Position numbers and translations under genes: made by a program
In this document: positions 40,481-52,931 of the stretch, one piece after another
How positions within the stretch are numbered: the stretch's first letter is position 1
Layout of the letters: the number at the start of each line of letters is the position of its first letter
The notes under the pieces: generated by a model
What the model was told of the DNA's origin: nothing
Database searches by the model: none
The model's input: the letters and a program-made list of their open reading frames with translations, nothing else
NCBI GenBank assembly: GCA_021796275.1
Contig: JAJYOI010000001.1
Location: forward strand, 6,803-70,802
Reading direction: 5' to 3'
DNA length: 64,000 nucleotides
Origin: Bacteroidota bacterium
GTDB taxonomy: Bacteria; Bacteroidota; Ignavibacteria; UBA10030; UBA8401

Positions 40481-43400
40481 TCATCCGACGCGCCCTTCCG
40501 CAAGCAAATCTTGCAGGCGTTCCACCTGGAACTTCGACTTCAGGGATAACTGTTCAAGAACTTTAATTTCCGCATGGACTGCCGCTGCAAATTTAGTGAG
40601 GCGTTCGGTTTTTTCAGCTACCGCCGTTTGAATTAATACGATGCGTGCAAACCAATGCAATATTTTTTCGAATTGTTCCTTGCTAAAGTACCACACACCT
40701 CCATATAAATTAACTTTAAGAAAATCACGTACAAAAGAATCGTTAAAAAGCTTCTCTATAACTAATCTCCACGACTTAACATCAACGTTTTCGAATTGAG
40801 ATGCATGACGCAATAAAACATGAAAAAGCACTTCTCTGTTTTCTGATGAAACTTTTCGGCGATCTGCTTCGATCATCCCTCGAACAATTTCCGGCAACCG
40901 CAATCTCTCAAAAACCAGATCGCTGTCTTTTAACGTTGTCTTTCGGGAAAGAACATCCATGATGATCCACAGAAAGAGAATTTTTGCTTCTTCCAATGTG
41001 AGAGCCTTATGCAGTAACAATCTTCCGGAAGCTTTTCGAGAACGCTGGCGTTGGCGTTGCGAATCGTGAACAATGCGCTCGACCGCCTGCACTTTTTCCT
41101 TCAGCGCTTGTGCAGCGTATTCCTTATCGAATTGATCACCAAGAAATGGGTACACATCATTTCCTAACTGCACAAATAATCGTTCAATCTGGCTAACTTC
41201 AACCTCGTCGAAAATGAATTTTTTCGATCGAGAAGCAAAGCTCTTCGCAAAACTTTCAATAAATTGATGCCTGAGAATTTTCTCGAACTGTTTATGAATT
41301 GGCGCCAGCCGCAATTGTTCCAACTCACTATAAATGCTGGACATGCCCCGCCCTTTTTGACGGCGCGTGAGCATTTCATACTCACCATTGGAATCAAACA
41401 CCTCTCGAAAATCAAGAAAAATATGATACTGAAATGCTTTCAGTTCGACATACAATCCTTGCTCATATAATTCCGCGCCCGAACGAATGTATTCAAGATT
41501 CGATTTGAAATCTTTGAAGATGTAATATACATTTGGCGACGAATTAAGGCGAAGCGCCTCACCTAACGTTTTCACACCAACTGCTTTCACACCATTTTCC
41601 CGCACATACAATTTTGGCGACGCTGTTCGAATCCACCCTTTGCATTCTTCATATTTGTTGTGATACACAATCAACGCGCGCTCGTTGCCCGCAACGTTCG
41701 AATAAGCAAAAACATTGTCGTTCACAGTGCCGCGCGCATCAACAAAATCGTACAGCTCAAAATTATCAACTTGGCTGAAAAGATACCGCTTGCTCATGAT
41801 CGGAAAAATTTCCTGCTCGTGCCGTCTAATCAAATGCTCATCAGCCGATTCATTATAGTACGCACGTTTGTATTCCATGCCGTATTTTTCCGTTAAGCCT
41901 TCAATCTGGCCGTGAGCAAACATCGGAAGCCCGGGTAACGTCACCATCATGAGCGCGGCACCGAAATATTTATCGTCTTTCCCGAACTGGGCCATGGCAG
42001 TTTGTTCATCAGGATTGCTCATAAAGTTGACATAGCGCTTCAGGATTTCCGGATTGTAATCGAGTGTATTTTTTATGAGCTGGCGGTATTTTCCGTTTTC
42101 TTCCTTCATCAACATGTGCATGAATGCACTGTTATAGACACGATGCATTCCGAGCGTTCGAACAAAATATCCTTCCATCAGCCAAAACGCTTCTGCAAGC
42201 AGCAGCGTGTCTGGCATTTCAGCATTGATACGGTCAACAACGTCTCTCCAAAATTCATTGGAAAAAAGTTTGTCGAATTCATCCCGGCTTAACGCGTGAT
42301 CGGCGCGCGATGGAATGTCGCCGCCGGTTCCCGGTTGCGGATACCACAAACGTTGATAATGTTTTTTTGTCAACGTCATCGCCGCATCAAACCGGATAAT
42401 CGGAAATTTTCTTGCAACATGAAAAATAGTCTGGATCAATGCTTCGCGCACTTCAGCTTTCAATAAATCAAGCTGTGCCGTGTCATTCCACGGCATGCTC
42501 GTGCCATCGTTCCCGTGATAAATGTATGTTACCTTCCCCGTCGCTCGATCAATACGCTGAAAAACAACCGCCGCGTCCGAGCGCCGCCAGTAACCGTCTT
42601 CAATGCGAAGCTCAACCCGCGAGTCGTGCGAAAGATTTTCTCCTGTAAAGCGATAATTGGGAAACGGGCTGTAGTCAGATTGAATAAAAAATTCAGGATG
42701 CTCGATGATCCAACGCGAATATATTCCCATGTGATTAGGTACCATGTCGCCGGCAAGCCGGATTCCTCTTTGCCATGCACGTGCTTTCAAATTTTGAAAC
42801 GCTGCTTCACCGCCAAGATCATTCGCAATTTCATATTCGAATAAAGAATACGCGGAAGGAACAGCTTCCGGATTTCCGGTCAATTGTTTTATCCTCTGCG
42901 AGGCAGTGCTTCGTTCCCACAAGCCGATGAGCCACAGAGCGGTGAAATTCCATCGCGCAAGCTGGTCCAATTCTTCATCAGGAATTTGATCAAGCCGCGT
43001 GATGGATCGTTGATATTTTTTAGATAACTGATCAAGCCAGACATACGAATTTTTCGCAAGCAGCACAACCCTCGGCATCCAGTCGGTGTCAGAAGTAAAT
43101 CGTTCGTACTCCGGTGAATCATAATGCGCGCCGCCTTCATCATGTTTGAATGTAGGAACCGGCGGAAGGGCAGCACCGCCTTGAGGAAACAGTTTCGATT
43201 CTTCCGCAAGAAAATCCATTCCGCTCAAAATACGATTCAGATACTTCGTGGAAAGTATCATTCCCCACCTGCGCCGAATAAATTGAAGCTGTGCTTCTAA
43301 GCTATCGGGATGGGCAAGAATTGGCGCACGCAGCAATTCGAATAACGATTGATGATCAGGTCCAAAAGGCTTTTCGTTTTTGAAAAAATTCTCGAGCGAT

Positions 43401-44052
43401 GTAACAACTTCGGTGTACATCGTGCGGGATGACAACTCAGCATCATCAAAAAGCTCTTTGAGCGGAGAAAACGCAGGATTAACATTAGCGAAGTATAAAA
43501 GAACAATTTCTTCGAGCGTTACGAGGCGGTTCGCACGATTTCCAGACACGCCCGCAAGAAATTCACCAGGCGATTTTAGTTTTCTATGAATTTCTACTGT
43601 CGGAAATTTTCCAACAAATACCGTGAGCAGCTCATCCAGTTTTTGTTTCTTAAGAGTACGAAGCAGCGCATTTTCAGCGCGTAGAAAAACTCCGGGGCTT
43701 GCTGTTTCTTCGTACAACCGGACAACAAAATGAAAAATCTCATCGATTAATCCCATTGCATTAACATGTCCGGCACGCACCGCCTTCTTCGGATCACGCT
43801 GCTCGTTTATTTTTTGCGTGAAGACTCTGACTGCTCGGAAATCAGGAAAAATCACATTGCCGGCAGTTGAAAATAATGAGTCGCTAAACTGATATTTATC
43901 TCTTGCTGAAGCGTGAATATGAAATTCGTAGCAGGGAAAATTTTGACGGGACGTTGGAAATGTTCCAAGCCGGGACAAGGTAATGACGAGAGGAAGCGAA
44001 TTACATTCCCGCCGTGTGAAGATTCCGTTGAATAAGGTTTTTGACTTCATTG
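40481..44052 (-). CDS. Very large (about 1190 aa) GH13-superfamily (alpha-amylase-like) glucan-active enzyme. It has an N-terminal extension of about 400 aa and a C-terminal extension of about 400 aa.
   Basis: GH13 conserved regions: I GDMVPNHMG, II IIRFDAAMTLTKKH (nucleophile Asp), III LLAEAFW (acid/base Glu), IV NFMSNPDE. Start taken at MKSKTLF (ATG 44052). Confidence 0.55.
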
Positions 44053-44280
44053 GGAAATGATGATGTATGGTACGCAATCGTGACACATATTTCAATCTTT
44101 GAGATATTTCATCACTGCCTCTAAAAAAAACTGCCCACAGAAAAATTCCATGAGCAGTCAATTGTTAGCGAATCTTCTTCTTGTGCCGCATCTTCCGCAA
44201 GCGTTTTTTTCGCTTGTGTGTCGCCATTTTATGGCGTTTGCGCTTTTTTCCACTTGGCATAAGTGTTCTCCGTGTTTAGT

Positions 44281-45472: not shown

Positions 45473-46375
45473 TTATGGTTGAGTAAGTTTGTATTGCAAT
45501 ATCGGCTGATTCAAAACCTCTTCTTTTAATCCTGAAATTTCATTCTTCACGCTTCCCATTAAAACGTCGAGAAGTCTTTCTTTCTTTCGCTCTTTGATAA
45601 GACGCGGTGTTCCGGAAATTCCCGCCAGGTCCGCGGCAATGGATATCGCATCTTCGTACGTTCCGAGAGTATCAATCAAACCAACTTCGTATGCTTTTTT
45701 TCCGGTGAAGACGCGTCCGTCGGCAAGTTCTTTTGCCTTCGCAGGAGAAAGCTTGCGCTCAGTTTCAACGACATTCAAAAATTGCTGATATACATCGTCA
45801 ATTGTTTCCTGAAAATATTTTTTATCCTCTTCAGAAAACGGACGGTATGGCGAACCGGTATCCTTGAATTTTCCGCTCTTGACTGTCGTCGAGCCGATCC
45901 CGATTTTGTTGAAAAGTTGATTGAAGTTGAGAAATTCTGAGATGACACCAATACTTCCCGTAAGTGTCCCCGGGTTTGCAACAATTTTAGTTGCACCAAG
46001 TGAAACGTAATATCCACCGCTTGCCGCAACAGAACCCATCGAAACAACAACCGGCTTTCCGCTGTCACGGGTTTTTTTCACTTCCTCATAAATTTCCTGG
46101 CTTGCAGAAACGCCGCCACCCGGCGACTCAATACGAAAAACAATTGCTTTGACCGAATTGTCTTCCCGGTATTTTTTGAATTGACGAACGATGTCCTCTG
46201 AAGAAACAATCTGTTCTTTCAATTCCACAATAGCAATCGTCCCTCCGGTCCCCGAAGAATATTCTTCATCGTTCTCACTGTGGAAAAGGAAGAAAAGGAC
46301 CGCCGCCCAAAACAAAATGAAAACCAGAAAAACTGCCCCAATGCTTCCCAACACCCATTTCGTTGTTTTCGTCAT
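45473..46375 (-). CDS. sppA: Signal peptide peptidase SppA (36K type)
   Basis: N-terminal TM, then a ClpP/crotonase-fold region with GSVAASGGYYVS and the catalytic Ser/Lys context. Confidence 0.85.
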   Translation of the reverse strand: MTKTTKWVLGSIGAVFLVFILFWAAVLFFLFHSENDEEYSSGTGGTIAIVELKEQIVSSEDIVRQFKKYREDNSVKAIVFRIESPGGGVSASQEIYEEVKKTRDSGKPVVVSMGSVAASGGYYVSLGATKIVANPGTLTGSIGVISEFLNFNQLFNKIGIGSTTVKSGKFKDTGSPYRPFSEEDKKYFQETIDDVYQQFLNVVETERKLSPAKAKELADGRVFTGKKAYEVGLIDTLGTYEDAISIAADLAGISGTPRLIKERKKERLLDVLMGSVKNEISGLKEEVLNQPILQYKLTQP

Positions 46376-46561
46376 AGAAATATAATCAAGGACGCTAAGT
46401 TGTTGAAATTGCTTGAATTATATGAAAATCAAACACGAATGTCAAATGAACTTGACGGAAATTTATTCAAAAAAATTGGTTGCCGCCATTTTGGCTCATA
46501 ATTGTCTTTGGGAAATAGAAATTTGAAGGGTAAAAAACGACCGACGGTGAACGAAAAAGCC

Positions 46562-48844
46562 CTAAATCTTTGTCATGCGCAAGCGCAGAGAGTTGGATAC
46601 AACACTGACGGAACTAAATGCCATTGCGCCTGCGGCGATGATCGGATTCAACATTCCAAACGCCGCGAGAGGAATACCGATGACATTATAAATGAATGCC
46701 CAAAAAAGATTTTGCTTGATTGTTGAAAGAGTTTTTCCAGACAATTTCATCGCCTGCACAACGCCGTTAAGGTCGGATTTCATTAACGTGATATCGGCGG
46801 TTTCCATTGCGACATCAGTGCCGGTTCCCATCGCAATGCCAATGTCGGCTTGGGCAAGTGCCGGCGCGTCGTTGATGCCATCTCCGACCATTGCAACAAT
46901 TTTTCCCTCCTGCTGCAATTCTTTGATGCGGCTCGCTTTTTCACCGGGAAGAACTTCTGCAATCACGCGGCGGATGCCGACTTGCTGCGCTATGTTGTGC
47001 GCTGCTTGCCGTGAATCGCCGGTCAGCATCACAGTCTCTATCCCTATTTTCCCCAATGACGCAATTGCTGATTTTGAACTTGACTGAACTGTATCGGCAA
47101 CTGCAATAATTCCCGCCGATTTACCATTAACGGCAACAAACATCGGGGTTTTTCCTTCTGACTCAAATCGTGTTGCAGCACTTTCGCCATCAGATGTTTC
47201 GACTGAAAATTCCTGCATGAGTTTTCTATTTCCGACCGCAATCGCATTGCCGCCGATTGAGCCGACTATTCCCATGCCCGGATGTGACACAAAAGACTGA
47301 ACTTCAACAGCGGCAATTCCTTTCCCATTCACGAACGAAACAATTGCGGCGGCGAGAGGATGCTCTGATTTTTTTTCGACGGATGCTGTGAGGCGGAAAA
47401 ATTCATTCTCATCAATCCCGTCCATGAGTTTCACATCTGTCACGGACGGCTTCCCCATTGTCACCGTTCCGGTTTTATCGAAAACAACTGTTTGAACTTT
47501 ATGAAGACGCTCGAGACTATCGGCATTTTTAATAAGAACACCGCTCGAAGCGCCGCGGCCCGTTCCGACCATGATTGCCGTCGGCGTGGCAAGCCCAAGA
47601 GCGCACGGACACGCAATGATCAGCACCGCAATAAAATTTATCATCGCCGGAGTGAAACCAATTCCTCCCACAAAATACCAAAGCAAGAAAGTAACGACCG
47701 CAATTCCAATGACAATCGGAACAAACACAGAAGCAATTTTATCGGCAAGCGACTGGATCGGCGCTTTCGAACCTTGTGCTTCCTCCACCAATTTAATGAT
47801 GTGTGCGATCACCGTATCTTTTCCAATCGCCGCCGCACGGAATTCAATGCTTCCGTTGTTATTGATTGTTCCACCAACAACTTTATCGTCAATGTTTTTT
47901 TCAACCGGAATGCTTTCTCCCGTGATCATTGACTCATCAATTGAAGTGTAACCCTTCGTGACAATTCCATCAACCGGGATTTTTTCTCCGGGGCGCACAA
48001 GAACAATGTCGTTCACCATCACATCGCTAACAGATATATCACTTTCGATTCCTTTGCGAATTACACGTGCTGTTTTCGGCTGCAAACCGAGCAATTTTTT
48101 GATCGCATCCGATGTTTTGCTCTTTGCCCGCGCTTCAAAAACTCGCCCCATCAAAATCAAAGTAATAATTGTTGCCGCCGTGTCAAAATACACTGAGTGC
48201 ATTTCATTCTTGAAACCAAGCCAATGCGGGAAAAGCACGACGATAACACTATAAACGTACGCTACTCCGGTTCCGACAGCTACAAGTGTATTCATATCAG
48301 CAGAAAAATGTTTCACCAATCGCCATGCGGAAATATAAAATCGTTTGCCGGGAACAAACACAACGATCGTCGTCATCATCATAAGAAATTTATTTAGGTC
48401 GTCTATACTCACCGGCGATGCCTGTTTGAACCACTCCGTCATGCCTGCCATGCTCAACAGAACGAGCGGCACGGCGAGCGAAAGGCTGAAGATAAAATCT
48501 CGTTTCAATTCTTGATACGCTTTTTCCTGATGCGAAGGAGCACTGTGCGCTACACCGCCGCTTTCTTTTTTCTGAATATTTTCCTGTGGAATGACAAGTT
48601 TATACCCGGCTTCTTCCACCGCCGATGTAAGCTCCTCAATCTTGACTTGCGCCGGATCGAATGACAAAGAAACTTTTTCTGTTGCGAGATTAACGCTCGC
48701 TGCCTGAACGCCGTCAACTTTTTTCAGTGCCTTCTCAACGCGTAAAACACAACTTGCACATGTCATTCCTTCAACAGGAAGAGTCAATGTTTCAACCCGT
48801 TGAACGTCAGGCGTACTTTCTATTTCCCATTTTCCATCTTCCAT
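46562..48844 (-). CDS. copA: Copper-translocating P1B-type ATPase
   Basis: N-terminal HMA domain [11 protein letters not shown] motif ([11 protein letters not shown]). DKTGT phosphorylation site. GDGINDAP hinge. Confidence 0.9.
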
Positions 48845-48859
48845 TCTTTTACCAATCCA

Positions 48860-49069
48860 TCAATCCAAACCCACAAGCTTATATCCTGCTTCATCAATCG
48901 CGGCGGCGAGCTTTTCTTGCGAGACTTTCGTTTCGTCATACTGCACGCGCGCTTTCCCGATTTGAACATCTTCGACAGTAAGCCCCGCAATTGCCCCCAA
49001 TTCCTTTTTCACCGCCATCACACAATGACCGCAGCTCATTCCTTCAATTTTCAACTCACTCGATTTCAT
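48860..49069 (-). CDS. copZ: Copper chaperone (HMA domain)
   Basis: 69 aa, MKSSELKIEGMSCGHCVMAVKKEL. Confidence 0.8.
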   Translation of the reverse strand: MKSSELKIEGMSCGHCVMAVKKELGAIAGLTVEDVQIGKARVQYDETKVSQEKLAAAIDEAGYKLVGLD

Positions 49070-49197
49070 AACTGTATCTCCTTTCGAAAAATCATCAGTT
49101 CAGTGAATTACTTGATAATAATATAACATCTCTCCCTTGGTACAGCATTATATTTAAATGGAAATGTTTTATAGATTTCTGAGCCTCAAAAAAAGGG

Positions 49198-49854
49198 TTA
49201 TGATGCGACCTTATCAAGTGGCATTCGCTTTACCTGCTGAAGGTCACTTCGAGATTGAAAATTCCTTTGGGATTGTAATTCTTTAAAATATGTCGGTGTA
49301 AAACCGGTAACATCCTTAAATTGACCGGACAAATGCTGCACGCTGCTGTAACCCATCCGATATGCAATTTCGCTAAGCGTTAGTTCGTCGTAAACAAGCA
49401 GCTCTTTTACCCGCTCGATTCTTTGTAGAATGATAAACTTTTCAATCGTTACGTTCTCGATGGAAGAAAAAAGCTTGCTCAAATAACTGTAATCGTGCCC
49501 GACTTGCTCCGCGATGTACTTCGAGAAATTCACATTCATCTCACCGTCACTATCCGAATGGTGGATGCGATTGATAATCAGTGTCTTGATTTTTTCAATA
49601 AGCTTCATTCGCTGATCATCAATCAATTCGAAACCGTTCTCATGCAAAACGCGCCGGACTTTTTCAAGATCAATCTTCTTTGAACCGTTCGCAACGATAG
49701 CTTCACCGAGCCGAATGCTTCGCACGTCAAGCCCAAGATTTGCCAATTCTTCGCGCACAACACGAATGCATCTATCGCACACCATATTTTTGATGTACAA
49801 AGCAGTTGTGGTTACCAGCCTTTGTTTTTTCAATTTTTTCATGGCGCTTTTCAA
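49198..49854 (-). CDS. AraC-family transcriptional regulator with an N-terminal HMA-like metal-binding domain. It is a putative copper-responsive regulator.
   Basis: N-terminus TALYIKNMVCDRCIRVVREELANLGLDV (MxCxxC with a beta-alpha-beta-beta-alpha-beta pattern). The C-terminal AraC HTH is ..LTLSEIAYRMGYSSVQHLSGQFKDVTGFTPTYF. Confidence 0.75.
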   Translation of the reverse strand: MKSAMKKLKKQRLVTTTALYIKNMVCDRCIRVVREELANLGLDVRSIRLGEAIVANGSKKIDLEKVRRVLHENGFELIDDQRMKLIEKIKTLIINRIHHSDSDGEMNVNFSKYIAEQVGHDYSYLSKLFSSIENVTIEKFIILQRIERVKELLVYDELTLSEIAYRMGYSSVQHLSGQFKDVTGFTPTYFKELQSQRNFQSRSDLQQVKRMPLDKVAS

Positions 49855-49911
49855 TGCGTGCTTTCAAAAAAGGTACAAGTACTGAAACCGAAAAACAAAT
49901 GCCTCCCTTCG

Positions 49912-49940
49912 TTGCTTCTCTTCATCATCTTTGGTAAATT
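49912..49940 (+). promoter_or_regulatory. Candidate sigma-70 promoter TTGCTT-N17-TAAATT upstream of the phosphohexomutase operon
   Basis: Hexamers at 49912-49917 and 49935-49940 with a spacer of 17 nt. The ATG at 49976 is about 30 nt downstream of the predicted TSS. Confidence 0.35.
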
Positions 49941-49975
49941 CTCTCACTCAGTTTTTTTTGAAAAGGGCTTTCTGT

Positions 49976-51340
49976 ATGTCTCTCATGGTCAGCATTTCAG
50001 GCATTCGCGGCGTTGTTGGCGAAAGTCTTACGCCGGAAACCATTGTTAAATATGTTGCGGCGTACGCCGAGTATTGCAATCGGGGAACAATCGTTGTCGG
50101 CAGAGACGGGCGCATTACCGGAAAATCTGTCGCCGATATTGTCACTTCAACATTGCTGCAAGCAGGGTGCAATGTAATTTTCATCGGCGTTTGTCCGACG
50201 CCAACAGTGCAGCTTGCGGTGGAACAACTTCACGCCGCCGGCGGAATTTCAATTACGGCAAGCCACAATCCGATGCAATGGAACGGCTTAAAATTTATGG
50301 CAACCACCGGCATGTTTCTTAACGCTGAAGAAAATAAAAAGTTCTGGGCAATTGCAGAACGGGGCAATTTCGGCTTTGCGGCATGGGATAAGCAGGGAAA
50401 ATTCGAAAACGATGCGACATGGATTGACCGCCATATCCAAAAAATTATCAGCCTGCCCTACATCAACCTCGAAGCTGTCCGCTCAAAGAAATTCAAAGTC
50501 GTTGTTGACTGCGATAATGCCGCGGGCTGTGTCATCGTTCCAAAACTGCTGCGCCAATTTGAATGCAGGATCATTCCGCTGAATTGTGAGCTGACCGGAA
50601 TTTTTTCTCACACACCGGAACCGATTCCTGAAAACCTCACACAACTCGCAGCAAAAGTTGTTGAAGAAAAAGCCGATCTCGGCATTGCTGTTGATCCGGA
50701 TGTAGACCGGCTTGTTCTGATCAACGAAAAGGGCGAACCGTTCGTCGAAGAATACACCATCGCTTCGGCAGTGAATTTCGTTCTGAAAAAAGAGATGGAA
50801 CTCGGAAAGAAAGACCAGCGCGTAGTTGTCAATCTTTCAACAACACGCGCGGTTGACGATATTGCTACAAAGTTCGGCGCATCGGTTGCTCGAACGCCAG
50901 TCGGCGAAATCAATGTCGCTGCAAAGATGAAAGAAATCGGCGCTGTAGTTGGCGGCGAAGGAAGCGGAGGCGTAATTCTCCGCGAAGTCCATTTGGGAAG
51001 GGATGCTATGGTCGGCATCGGATTGTTTCTCCAATTCCTTACCGAATTCGGCGGGAAAACATCAGAACTGAAAGCGAGCCTGCCTCAATACACGATTGTG
51101 AAGAATAAAATTGAACTTGGGACACTTCAGCCTGATATAATTCTGAAAAAACTGAACGAAAAATATTCCCGTACTGAAAAAGCGAATTCTGACGACGGCT
51201 TGAAAATTGATTTCGCATCATCGTGGGTGCATTTGCGAAAATCAAACACCGAGCCGATCATTCGCATCATTGCAGAAGCAAAAACCCGCGACGAAGCCTC
51301 CTCGCTTGTTGAACGATTCAAGAAAGAAATTCTGGCATGA
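49976..51340 (+). CDS. Alpha-D-phosphohexomutase (phosphoglucosamine-mutase / phosphomannomutase-like)
   Basis: Active-site loop ITASHNPMQWNGLKF (phospho-Ser). Metal-binding DPDVDR. Start at MSLMVSISGIRGVVG (ATG 49976). The ORF-track start is an upstream TTG. Confidence 0.8.
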   Translation: MSLMVSISGIRGVVGESLTPETIVKYVAAYAEYCNRGTIVVGRDGRITGKSVADIVTSTLLQAGCNVIFIGVCPTPTVQLAVEQLHAAGGISITASHNPMQWNGLKFMATTGMFLNAEENKKFWAIAERGNFGFAAWDKQGKFENDATWIDRHIQKIISLPYINLEAVRSKKFKVVVDCDNAAGCVIVPKLLRQFECRIIPLNCELTGIFSHTPEPIPENLTQLAAKVVEEKADLGIAVDPDVDRLVLINEKGEPFVEEYTIASAVNFVLKKEMELGKKDQRVVVNLSTTRAVDDIATKFGASVARTPVGEINVAAKMKEIGAVVGGEGSGGVILREVHLGRDAMVGIGLFLQFLTEFGGKTSELKASLPQYTIVKNKIELGTLQPDIILKKLNEKYSRTEKANSDDGLKIDFASSWVHLRKSNTEPIIRIIAEAKTRDEASSLVERFKKEILA

Positions 51341-52656
51341 GTAAAATTCAAACAAAAAGTTTCGCTGTCACACTTTCAATATTCCTCATCCTGTTTTTTT
51401 CTTCAGCTATATCGTCCGTTAAGCCGAAGCTGCTTTGGTTTGATGCCACGGCGAATTTCGAACGGCTGAGCTATCCGGATTCCATCCGTTATTATTTGCA
51501 GAAAGCGCATTCTCTTGGCTTTACAGATGCAGTAGTTGATGTAAAACCGATTACCGGCGAAGTGCTCTACCGGAGTGTTGTCGCGCCGCAAATGAAAGAA
51601 TGGAACGGTTTCGCGCGACCCGATACTTTTGATTTTCTTTCAACATTCATTACAGAAGCGCATAAGCAAAAGATGCGCGTTCACGCCTCGCTCAACATTT
51701 TTTCCGGAGGACATAACTATATCGACCGCGGAATCGTTTATACCTCTCACCCCGAATGGGCATCCATCGTCTATACCGATTCCGGAACATTTCCAATCAC
51801 AAAAGTAAAGGCAAAATATTCGGCAATGCTCAATCCGGCAAATCCCGAAATCCAAAATTACGAAATCGAAATTCTCAAAGAACTTGTTTCAAAATATCCA
51901 CACCTCAATGGCATCATTCTTGACCGCGTCCGTTACGACGGAATTTGTGCCGACTTCAGCCCGCTTTCGCGCTCACTTTTCGAACACTCTCTTGAGAAAA
52001 AGATCGAACATTTCCCCGAAGATATTTTTTCATGGAAAAAAGATTCCGCAGGCAATACGTATCGTGCCGACGGAAGATATTTCAAACAATGGTTGGAATG
52101 GCGTGCACGCGTTATTACAGGATTTATGAAGAAAGCGCGCGCCGCGGTCAAGAACATCAATCCGAAAATTTCCTTTGGCGACTATACCGGATCTTGGTAT
52201 CCGATTTATTATGAAGTTGGTGTAAACTGGGCGAGCAAAAAGTATGACCCGTCAAAAAAATATTCATGGGCAACACCGACATATAAAAACACCGGCTACG
52301 CAGAATTGCTTGACCTTTTCTCTTCCGGAAATTATTATTTTGAAGTGACAAAAAAAGAAGTGCTTTCAAAAAACGAAACCGGCACAACAGAATCCGGGCG
52401 CGTTGGCAAAAAAGAATATTGGTACAGTGTCGAAGGCGCATGTGAAATTACAAAAGAAGTGCTGAAGAATGCGGTTCCGGTGTACGGCGGATTATATGTT
52501 GACCAGTACAACGGACACCCTGAGCAATTTGAAAAAGCTATTGCTATGTGTTTAAAAAAATCCGACGGGCTGATGATTTTTGATATTGTGCATATTATCA
52601 ACAATCATTGGTGGGATGTGCTGCAACGTGGGATTCAAATGGGAGAATCGAAATGA
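51337..52656 (+). CDS. Secreted GHL10/DUF187-family glycoside-hydrolase-like protein (YddW/YngK-like)
   Basis: Signal peptide. LLWFDAT...GFTDAVVDVKP...EAHKQKMRVHASLN...HPEW...LNPANPEIQNY...GIILDRVRY matches the GHL10 TIM-barrel-like pattern. ATGA start/stop overlap with the upstream gene. Confidence 0.6.
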   Translation: MSKIQTKSFAVTLSIFLILFFSSAISSVKPKLLWFDATANFERLSYPDSIRYYLQKAHSLGFTDAVVDVKPITGEVLYRSVVAPQMKEWNGFARPDTFDFLSTFITEAHKQKMRVHASLNIFSGGHNYIDRGIVYTSHPEWASIVYTDSGTFPITKVKAKYSAMLNPANPEIQNYEIEILKELVSKYPHLNGIILDRVRYDGICADFSPLSRSLFEHSLEKKIEHFPEDIFSWKKDSAGNTYRADGRYFKQWLEWRARVITGFMKKARAAVKNINPKISFGDYTGSWYPIYYEVGVNWASKKYDPSKKYSWATPTYKNTGYAELLDLFSSGNYYFEVTKKEVLSKNETGTTESGRVGKKEYWYSVEGACEITKEVLKNAVPVYGGLYVDQYNGHPEQFEKAIAMCLKKSDGLMIFDIVHIINNHWWDVLQRGIQMGESK

Positions 52657-52931
52657 GGCTCTGCAAAGTTACAGGAACAATCGTTTCAACTCAAAAAAAT
52701 GAAACGCTCAGGCAGTACAAGATTCTCATTGTTCAGCCAATTGATTTGCAGGGAAATTTCATTGAGAGGGATGTGCTGGCAATTGATACGGTTGATGCCG
52801 GCATCGGCGATACAGTGCTTATCATCCAAGAAGGCGCCGGCGCGCAGCAAGCGCTGAAACGGAAAGATGTTCCGGTTCACACTGTGGTTGTTGCGGTGGT
52901 CGATGGGCTTGACATTGCGGGGAACAAGTAA
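52653..52931 (+). CDS. EutN/CcmL/PduN-family protein (bacterial microcompartment vertex pentamer homolog). It is an orphan.
   Basis: MRLCKVTGTIVSTQKNETLRQYKILIVQPIDLQGN...VLAIDTVDAGIGDTVLIIQEGAGAQQAL...VHTVVVAVVDGLDI aligns along its length with CcmL/EutN (KV.GTVVSTQK..L.G.KLL.V...D..G.......A.D..GAG.G..VL...GS.AR.A). 92 aa. The ATG overlaps the upstream TGA (ATGA). Confidence 0.7.
   Translation: MRLCKVTGTIVSTQKNETLRQYKILIVQPIDLQGNFIERDVLAIDTVDAGIGDTVLIIQEGAGAQQALKRKDVPVHTVVVAVVDGLDIAGNK

Follow-up and report, generated by a model that had tools for sequence, protein, structure and literature searches.

Which protein tells a bacterium of the Ignavibacteria that its copper has to be exported? 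The standard copper sensors of bacteria (CueR, CsoR, CopY, CusRS/CopRS, ComR and CorE) come mostly from Proteobacteria and Firmicutes, and we found no description of a copper-efflux switch of the Bacteroidota in the full-text literature, subscription-only literature not being covered. The question is raised by a copZ-copA locus in a 64,000-nucleotide stretch of Bacteroidota bacterium GCA_021796275.1 (contig JAJYOI010000001.1, positions 6,803 to 70,802; hereafter the window), in which the open reading frame (ORF) list places three consecutive genes on the minus strand: a transcription regulator, then the putative metallochaperone gene copZ, then the ATPase gene copA. The original prediction, made from these letters, held that the regulator fuses a heavy-metal-associated (HMA) domain with an MxCxxC motif to an AraC-type helix-turn-helix (HTH) domain directly upstream of copZ-copA, and Pfam HTH matches, an AlphaFold2 model, Foldseek and hhalign bear out this architecture and placement. 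From the evidence set out below we consider it probable that the HMA-AraC protein is a one-component Cu(I) sensor that activates copZ-copA from direct repeats.

The regulator gene occupies 49198-49842 (minus strand) and encodes 214 amino acids (aa) from an ATG. The 218-aa ORF on which the original prediction relied is present (49198-49854) and opens at a TTG; the shorter product is nevertheless the likely one, given that the public gene call for the identical sequence (P0121) uses the ATG at 49842 and that most family members begin 7-19 residues ahead of the Cys motif. Residues are numbered throughout on the 218-aa ORF. A spacer of 128 bp (49070-49197) separates the regulator from copZ (48860-49069, minus strand), whose Shine-Dalgarno sequence AAGGAG (49078-49083, minus strand) was read from the sequence and is conserved in alignment with orthologous loci, and copA (46562-48844, minus strand) begins 15 nt past copZ.

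Judged by modelling and profile comparison, the N-terminal ~65 residues of the regulator are a real, divergent HMA domain, which spans residues 15-78 (49621-49812, minus strand). In the AlphaFold2 model, built from 34 homologues (predicted local distance difference test, pLDDT, 86; predicted template-modelling score 0.73), this part is modelled with a pLDDT above 90 and shows by DSSP the ferredoxin-like βαββαβ topology of an HMA fold (β15-22/α27-39/β43-48/β51-56/α63-72/β76-78), as the original prediction had anticipated. Foldseek comparison of the N-terminal half with the PDB returned CopZ (6ff2, 2qif) and the metal-binding domains of MerP, ATP7B and ZiaA; the matches 6ff2, 2qif, 1osd, 6a71 and 2l3m superpose over 68-72 residues with template-modelling (TM) scores of 0.65-0.77 and root-mean-square deviations (rmsd) of 2.1-3.1 Å, the two CopZ structures reaching TM 0.76-0.77 at 2.1-2.4 Å. 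When the family's N-terminal profile was aligned by hhalign with a CopZ/CopA HMA profile drawn from the same loci, the match, covering 66 of 69 columns, had a probability of 98.5% (E 3.4e-15), and the two Cys fell on those of GMSCxHC. Sequence searches of NCBIfam and the PDB gave faint matches to CopZ, MerTP and the CopA HMA domain (E ~0.01, residues 18-76).

The motif NMVCDRC (residues 23-29, nt 49768-49788) holds the presumed Cu(I)-binding loop, M24-V-C26-D-R28-C29 (codons at 49768-49785, minus strand), which sits at the β1-α1 junction between β15-22 and α27-39, and whose C26 and C29 are the sole cysteines of the protein. Alignment showed M24, V25, C26, R28 and C29 to be invariant in the 34 homologues (54-92% identity), and MVCxRC is retained in ~90% of 150 diverse representatives (clusters at 50% identity). 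A sub-branch of ~11 of these 150 (P0164, P0165, P0191, P0201, P0229, P0235, P0245, P0248, P0260, P0215 and P0232) has lost the first Cys and kept the HMA-AraC scaffold, with NMVSxRCK, MVGIRC or NMESDRC/NMEGDRC in place of the motif; a two-thiolate Cu(I) site is therefore impossible in these proteins, which may sense something else.

The rest of the protein is a MarA/SoxS-like AraC/XylS DNA-binding domain (residues 81-202; 49249-49614, minus strand), recognised by Pfam, PDB sequence matches, Foldseek and the helix map. HTH_18 (PF12833), the Pfam family expected from the original prediction, reaches 55 bits (cut-off 33.6) and HTH_AraC 39.5 (cut-off 26.6) over residues 114-191; the model contains seven helices (81-99, 110-118, 122-133, 137-155, 160-166, 172-183 and 187-202), and Foldseek matches this half to GadX, AdpA, SoxS and MarA (3oio, 3mn2, 7w5w for SoxS, 1bl0 for MarA) with TM scores of 0.67-0.84. 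No MerR, CsoR or CopY/BlaI domain is among the regulator's Pfam and NCBIfam matches, and its structural matches are exclusively of AraC and HMA type. In the model the last HMA strand (76-78) enters the first AraC helix (81-99) through ~2 linker residues and no separate dimerisation domain is evident; given so short a linker, the protein is essentially MarA with a chaperone domain attached. It ends in a tail, KRxPLDKV (residues 209-216; 49207-49230, minus strand), which has low pLDDT, is retained in 81 of the 150 representatives and contains R210 and D214, both invariant in the 34 homologues. Just ahead of the tail, the window protein and its nearest relatives carry an insertion of up to ~13 residues (the QSQRNFQSRSDLQQV region) that most of the family lacks.

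Where would such a protein act? An expectation-maximisation motif search of the non-coding DNA between the regulator and the next gene's start codon in 73 loci of the family found a 26-bp element, ATAAatctTTtCcAaAATTnTaTAAC, with a log-likelihood of 536 compared to ~90 in shuffled sets, and 51 of the 73 loci score at least 14 bits for it (strong operators). The family operator consists of two 12-bp direct repeats, AAATctTATAAC-N9-AAATTnTGTAAC, with a period of 21 bp and the repeat consensus AAATnnTRTAAC, the frequency matrices of the two units correlating at r = 0.86 compared to 0.31 or less in shifted registers. In the window, motif search and alignment place the predicted operator at 49147-49179 (minus strand), with GAAATCTATAAA at 49168-49179 and TTTAAATATAAT at 49147-49158; its copy of the 26-bp element is ATAAAACATTTCCATTTAAATATAAT (49147-49172), flanked upstream by GAAATCT. 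Scored on the window background it reaches 16.9 bits and is the top match of the entire 64 kb on both strands (128,000 positions), the next-best match scoring 13.2 bits (shuffles give 1.85 matches at 11.5 bits or more), and it aligns column by column with the strong operators of the nearest relatives. Strong operators occur at 36 of 49 loci with a CopA-type ATPase gene as cargo and at 15 of 24 loci without one, so that the operator goes along with the regulator, whichever cargo follows. An operator between regulator and cargo is new in this analysis, and binding of the regulator to it is a prediction from sequence.

The operator stands in a fixed geometry to a promoter. At 50 of the 51 strong operators the TTT[G/A] core of a TAnnTTTG box, which we take to be the −7 element of the primary sigma factor of Bacteroidota, lies 24-25 nt past the operator end, so that the box starts at 21 nt, and at 48 of the 51 there is no TTTG at −33; the operator usually opens 75-85 nt ahead of the ATG of the next gene. 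The candidate −7 box of the window, TATATTAT (49118-49125, minus strand), likewise starts 21 nt past the operator. A scan of 46300-50100 for sigma70-type promoters and intrinsic terminators gave as many matches as expected from shuffled sequence and pointed to nothing of use in the spacers; the sigma70 model is the wrong one for promoters of this lineage. Elsewhere on the minus strand, at 46417-46445, a perfect 12/12 sigma70 consensus promoter (TTGACA-17-TATAAT) stands upstream of a gene for an SppA-like signal peptide peptidase (45473-46375); the organism may thus have two promoter styles, the sigma70 consensus and the Bacteroidota-type −7 box proposed for copZ.

The position of the operator also changes the view of the transcription unit. 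The regulator had been taken for the first gene of the operon, which is doubtful given an operator and promoter in the 49070-49197 spacer and no operator upstream of the regulator at any of 82 loci (0/82). For the same reason autoregulation through an upstream operator of its own was rejected, the corresponding region of the window scoring −5.6 bits. The regulator would therefore seem to have a transcript of its own, the unit under control being copZ-copA; of the two regions 49070-49197 and 49855-49975, both put forward as binding targets in the original prediction, the former alone is predicted to bind the regulator. Read-through from the regulator is possible because no terminator was detected after it in the intrinsic-terminator scan of 46300-50100. 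An Rfam scan of the whole window matched no RNA family, and thus no riboswitch or leader in the spacers.

A candidate specificity residue can be named from natural variation of the operator. In a subset of loci, largely Flavobacteriia with some Sphingobacteriia and Cytophagia, ACAA half-sites replace ATAA/GTAA, and residue 174 in recognition helix 2 (SSVxH/YLSxQFK in the family; SSVQHLSGQFK with His174 in the window, codon at 49333-49335, minus strand) is the sole alignment column to pass a discrimination filter and also the best by Fisher's test. Tyr174 is paired with ACAA in 11 of 13 cases, His174 with RTAA in 36 of 39 (p = 4e-7). This link between residue and operator is suggestive only.

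Taken together, these elements lead us to the following mechanism. The 214-aa protein would be a one-component sensor of a soft metal, most likely Cu(I), and two protomers would occupy the 12-bp direct repeats at their 21-bp period in the regulator-copZ spacer, the promoter-proximal repeat with its protomer standing in for the absent −33 element 21 nt ahead of the −7 box. On a rise of Cu(I) in the cytoplasm, Cys26 and Cys29 would bind the metal, either directly or by hand-over from CopZ, and the metal-loaded regulator would activate copZ-copA much as AraC acts at I1-I2 or as MarA/SoxS act at class II promoters. Hand-over from CopZ is possible in the clade of the window and cannot be general, because most loci have no separate copZ. 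It seems more likely that the signal passes through a metal-induced change of the interface between the HMA and DNA-binding domains, or of the surface that contacts the polymerase, than through a Cu(I)-bridged symmetric HMA dimer; the latter was not adopted as the main model, since an operator of tandem direct repeats and a 2-residue linker suit it badly. In other genomes the same mechanism would serve whatever copper-resistance cargo follows the operator.

Several observations weigh against this mechanism. PF00403, the Pfam model by which the original prediction proposed to recognise the HMA domain, has no match on the full-length regulator at E≤0.1, and with the isolated N-terminal domain it gives 14.4 bits against a cut-off of 24.8; it matches 18 of 23 family members, all under the gathering score (best E 2.4e-4). 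The threshold is missed because the domain has diverged too far for the curated model to recognise it, and this is why database labels are merely "AraC family" or "helix-turn-helix". The window operator scores 11.8 bits on the family background, below the 14-bit cut and weaker than most, and its −7 box is weak as well, with 6 of 8 positions matching TAnnTTTG; 22 of the 73 loci have no strong operator at the position searched. The two-fold symmetry known from Cu(I)-bridged HMA dimers sits badly with tandem repeats. As for residue 174, the next-best column has p = 1.6e-5 and other columns reach p ~1e-5, and the proteins with Tyr form a tighter subclade (72% identity to one another, 56% between groups), so that ancestry contributes to the association. 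Finally, a site overlapping −33 could also serve a repressor.

This last point leads to the alternative that the apo-protein sits on the repeats and blocks RNA polymerase until Cu(I) releases it, following the logic of CopY and CsoR. A protein bound over the −33 region can occlude polymerase, and derepression is indeed the usual mode of dedicated copper sensors other than those of MerR type, CsoR and CopY being examples. The promoters themselves nonetheless have the look of activated ones: the lack of a −33 TTTG at nearly all of them is expected where transcription depends on an activator and not of strong promoters held down by a repressor, the operator leaves the −7 box and the start site uncovered, and 21-bp direct repeats whose proximal copy abuts −35 are the classical layout of AraC/XylS activators. 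Most AraC/XylS proteins are activators. We thus regard repression as unlikely, and from the promoter layout we infer that the metal-loaded protein would activate.

What the family controls speaks to the identity of the signal. In the window the cargo is of copper type. The 760-aa product of copA is a P1B-1 Cu(I)/Ag(I)-exporting ATPase that scores 621 bits on TIGR01511 (Cu-type P1B ATPase; cut-off 397), with Pfam E1-E2_ATPase and Hydrolase domains, a single N-terminal HMA domain (GMTCASC), and, in its translation, the motifs CPC (ACPCALG), YN (YNVIG) and MxxSS (MAFSS) and the DKTGT phosphorylation site; it stays below the cut-off of the E. coli CopA equivalog model (711 against 1316), as is to be expected of a one-HMA form. 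The product of copZ, a putative 69-aa HMA metallochaperone with MSCGHC, passes Pfam HMA (44 bits, cut-off 24.8) and falls under the cut-offs of the NCBIfam CopZ equivalogs (65.8 against 91) and of TIGR00003 (57.7 against 62), scoring 58-66 bits on CopZ models.

The linkage to metal genes holds across the family. An exhaustive profile search (E≤1e-30) collected 1,023 HMA-AraC clusters at 50% identity, and when one genome per species was scanned, at least 595 species genomes proved to be carriers, chiefly Bacteroidota and metagenome-assembled genomes of Ignavibacteria/Chlorobi type with a few others. The Bacteroidota carriers include Bacteroides, Prevotella, Dysgonomonas, Flavobacterium, Tenacibaculum, Chryseobacterium, Pedobacter, Mucilaginibacter, Pontibacter, Spirosoma and Chitinophagaceae, with Bacteroides ovatus and Tenacibaculum discolor among the species in the genome scan. 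A CopA-type ATPase gene follows directly in the same orientation, whether or not a copZ intervenes, at 51 of 80 species loci and lies just upstream of the regulator at 2 further ones; a separate copZ is absent from most of the 80. Where the genes downstream of the regulator were read at the other loci, they are mostly metal genes: HMA-fused permeases or MauE-like membrane proteins, DUF4396 and HMA-DUF4396 proteins, CusA/CzcA-type resistance-nodulation-division (RND) pumps with CusB and TolC partners, and a multicopper oxidase. Thirty-five Bacteroidota plasmids hold one copy of the regulator or, often, two, and the two plasmid regions inspected encode a P-type ATPase, a cupredoxin, a "bilirubin oxidase", DUF305 and heavy-metal-binding proteins beside it. 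These two loci, on Spirosoma linguale pSLIN02 (L084) and in Hymenobacter sp. NBH84 (L085), are copper-resistance islands near transposases and conjugative-transposon genes. The plasmid copies suggest that regulator and operator move horizontally together with their cargo. This linkage across classes and replicons is our main argument that the protein senses a soft metal, for which copper is the best candidate; the Cys pair would be its binding site, with a probable specificity for Cu(I).

The same neighbourhoods bear on the alternative that CxxC serves as a thiol switch for oxidants or electrophiles, or that the main signal is another soft metal (Hg, Cd, Zn or Ag). A CxxC pair can form a disulfide, and in E. 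coli the AraC-family activator RclR senses reactive chlorine through an N-terminal cysteine pair. HMA domains are not confined to copper and take up Hg(II), Cd(II) and Zn(II) as well, the domains of MerP and ZiaA/ZntA are among the structural matches, and the RND pumps that make up part of the cargo may have other substrates than copper. Against this stand a cargo that is overwhelmingly of copper type (Cu-class P1B-1 ATPase, CopZ, multicopper oxidase, cupredoxin), the absence of mer and oxidative-stress genes from the neighbourhoods read (the non-CopA loci and the two plasmid regions), and the fold itself, which is that of a metallochaperone and not of thioredoxin. We consider such a signal quite improbable. 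That the HMA-like domain is just a structural or dimerisation module of an activator that is constitutive or otherwise controlled, with the adjacency of copZA meaningless, is very improbable, for although Pfam HMA stays sub-threshold and relatives without the first Cys keep the scaffold, MVCxRC has been preserved among close homologues and most representatives despite 50-60% overall identity, and the association with metal cargo extends over classes and plasmids.

How does a Cu(I)-responsive HMA-AraC activator compare with known systems? Akin to AraC, MarA, SoxS and Rob, the regulator has a seven-helix DNA-binding domain with two HTH motifs, its sensor is N-terminal as theirs, and, as at I1-I2 of araBAD for AraC, the direct repeats of its predicted operator have a 21-bp period with the proximal one abutting or replacing the −35/−33 element. 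Unlike AraC, its sensor is a 65-residue HMA fold in place of a cupin or other ligand domain, joined by a near-absent linker where that of AraC is flexible and with no distinct dimerisation domain in evidence; its promoters are of TAnnTTTG type and it has the extra KRxPLDKV tail, both in contrast to AraC and MarA. With CopZ/Atx1 and the domains of CopA and ATP7B it shares βαββαβ, M-x-C-x-x-C in the β1-α1 loop and a G-[FY] motif before β4, but its HMA domain is fused to a transcription-factor domain, unlike CopZ/Atx1, and its loop reads M-V-C-x-R-C with an invariant Arg where that of CopZ reads M-S/T-C-x-H/G-C. Like CueR, CsoR and CopY, it would detect cytoplasmic Cu(I) by means of cysteine thiolates and govern copA/copZ operons, and as with CopY of Enterococcus hirae its Cu(I) could come from CopZ, although its fold and mode of DNA binding are unrelated to those of all three, and it is predicted to recruit polymerase from a site overlapping −33 whereas CueR untwists DNA and CsoR and CopY derepress.

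Two further systems offer partial parallels. Archaeal CopR/CopT combine a cysteine metal-binding module of metallochaperone type with a DNA-binding domain and are encoded beside copA and a small chaperone gene, but they are built from an Lrp/AsnC-like HTH and a C-terminal TRASH domain, in reversed order and in other phyla. RclR differs in that its sensor domain is not HMA, its signal is oxidation and its regulon is rclABC.

Both domains, copper sensing by cysteine thiolates and AraC-type activation from direct repeats are already known. We did not find described a metallochaperone fold serving as the sensor of an AraC/XylS protein, with an operator of its own and a family of ~1,000 clusters. 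The original prediction called the architecture little studied, and this agrees with our searches: the full-text literature, subscription-only literature not being covered, yielded no description of an HMA-AraC regulator, and every database label seen for family members is one of the two generic names given above.

Outside the copper locus, three genes of the window drew our attention. An isolated gene of EutN/CcmL type (microcompartment vertex protein) at 52608-52931 (plus strand; true start probably the ATG at ~52653) lies between a phosphoglucosamine-mutase-like gene and dprA, has no shell-protein genes nearby and is kept in two syntenic relatives (L001, 4191-4469; L002, 3956-4231). Between the mutase gene and this EutN-like gene, a 439-aa ORF with a signal-peptide-like N-terminus (51337-52656, plus strand) has no counterpart at the same position in L001 and L002, and looks like a lineage-specific insertion. 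An ORF of ~1,190-1,226 aa (40481-44161, minus strand), downstream of a TPR/zinc-ribbon gene and conserved in L001, gave an alpha-amylase-domain signal alone, weak and seen on the L001 counterpart.

If the HMA-AraC regulator works as we propose, it would represent a new architecture of metalloregulation in which a chaperone fold has been turned into an allosteric switch. We would put at about even the chances that Bacteroidota and Ignavibacteria, with gut Bacteroides and Prevotella as well as Flavobacterium and Tenacibaculum as fish pathogens among them, rely on this family as their main cytoplasmic copper sensor, one not recognised until now. The family would then form a new structural class of bacterial metalloregulator, a metallochaperone domain wired directly to a MarA-like DNA-binding domain, perhaps loaded by CopZ through ligand exchange as between chaperones, that activates −33-less promoters from an AAATnnTRTAAC direct repeat. 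The predicted operator, the Cys pair and the His/Tyr174 position make the system testable in cultured carriers, and a copper-inducible protein of ~190 aa with a 33-bp operator would be a useful part for synthetic biology in Bacteroides. Bacteroidota include dominant gut commensals, pathogens in aquaculture and degraders in soil and sea, and such a sensor would explain how the copper islands on their chromosomes and plasmids are regulated.

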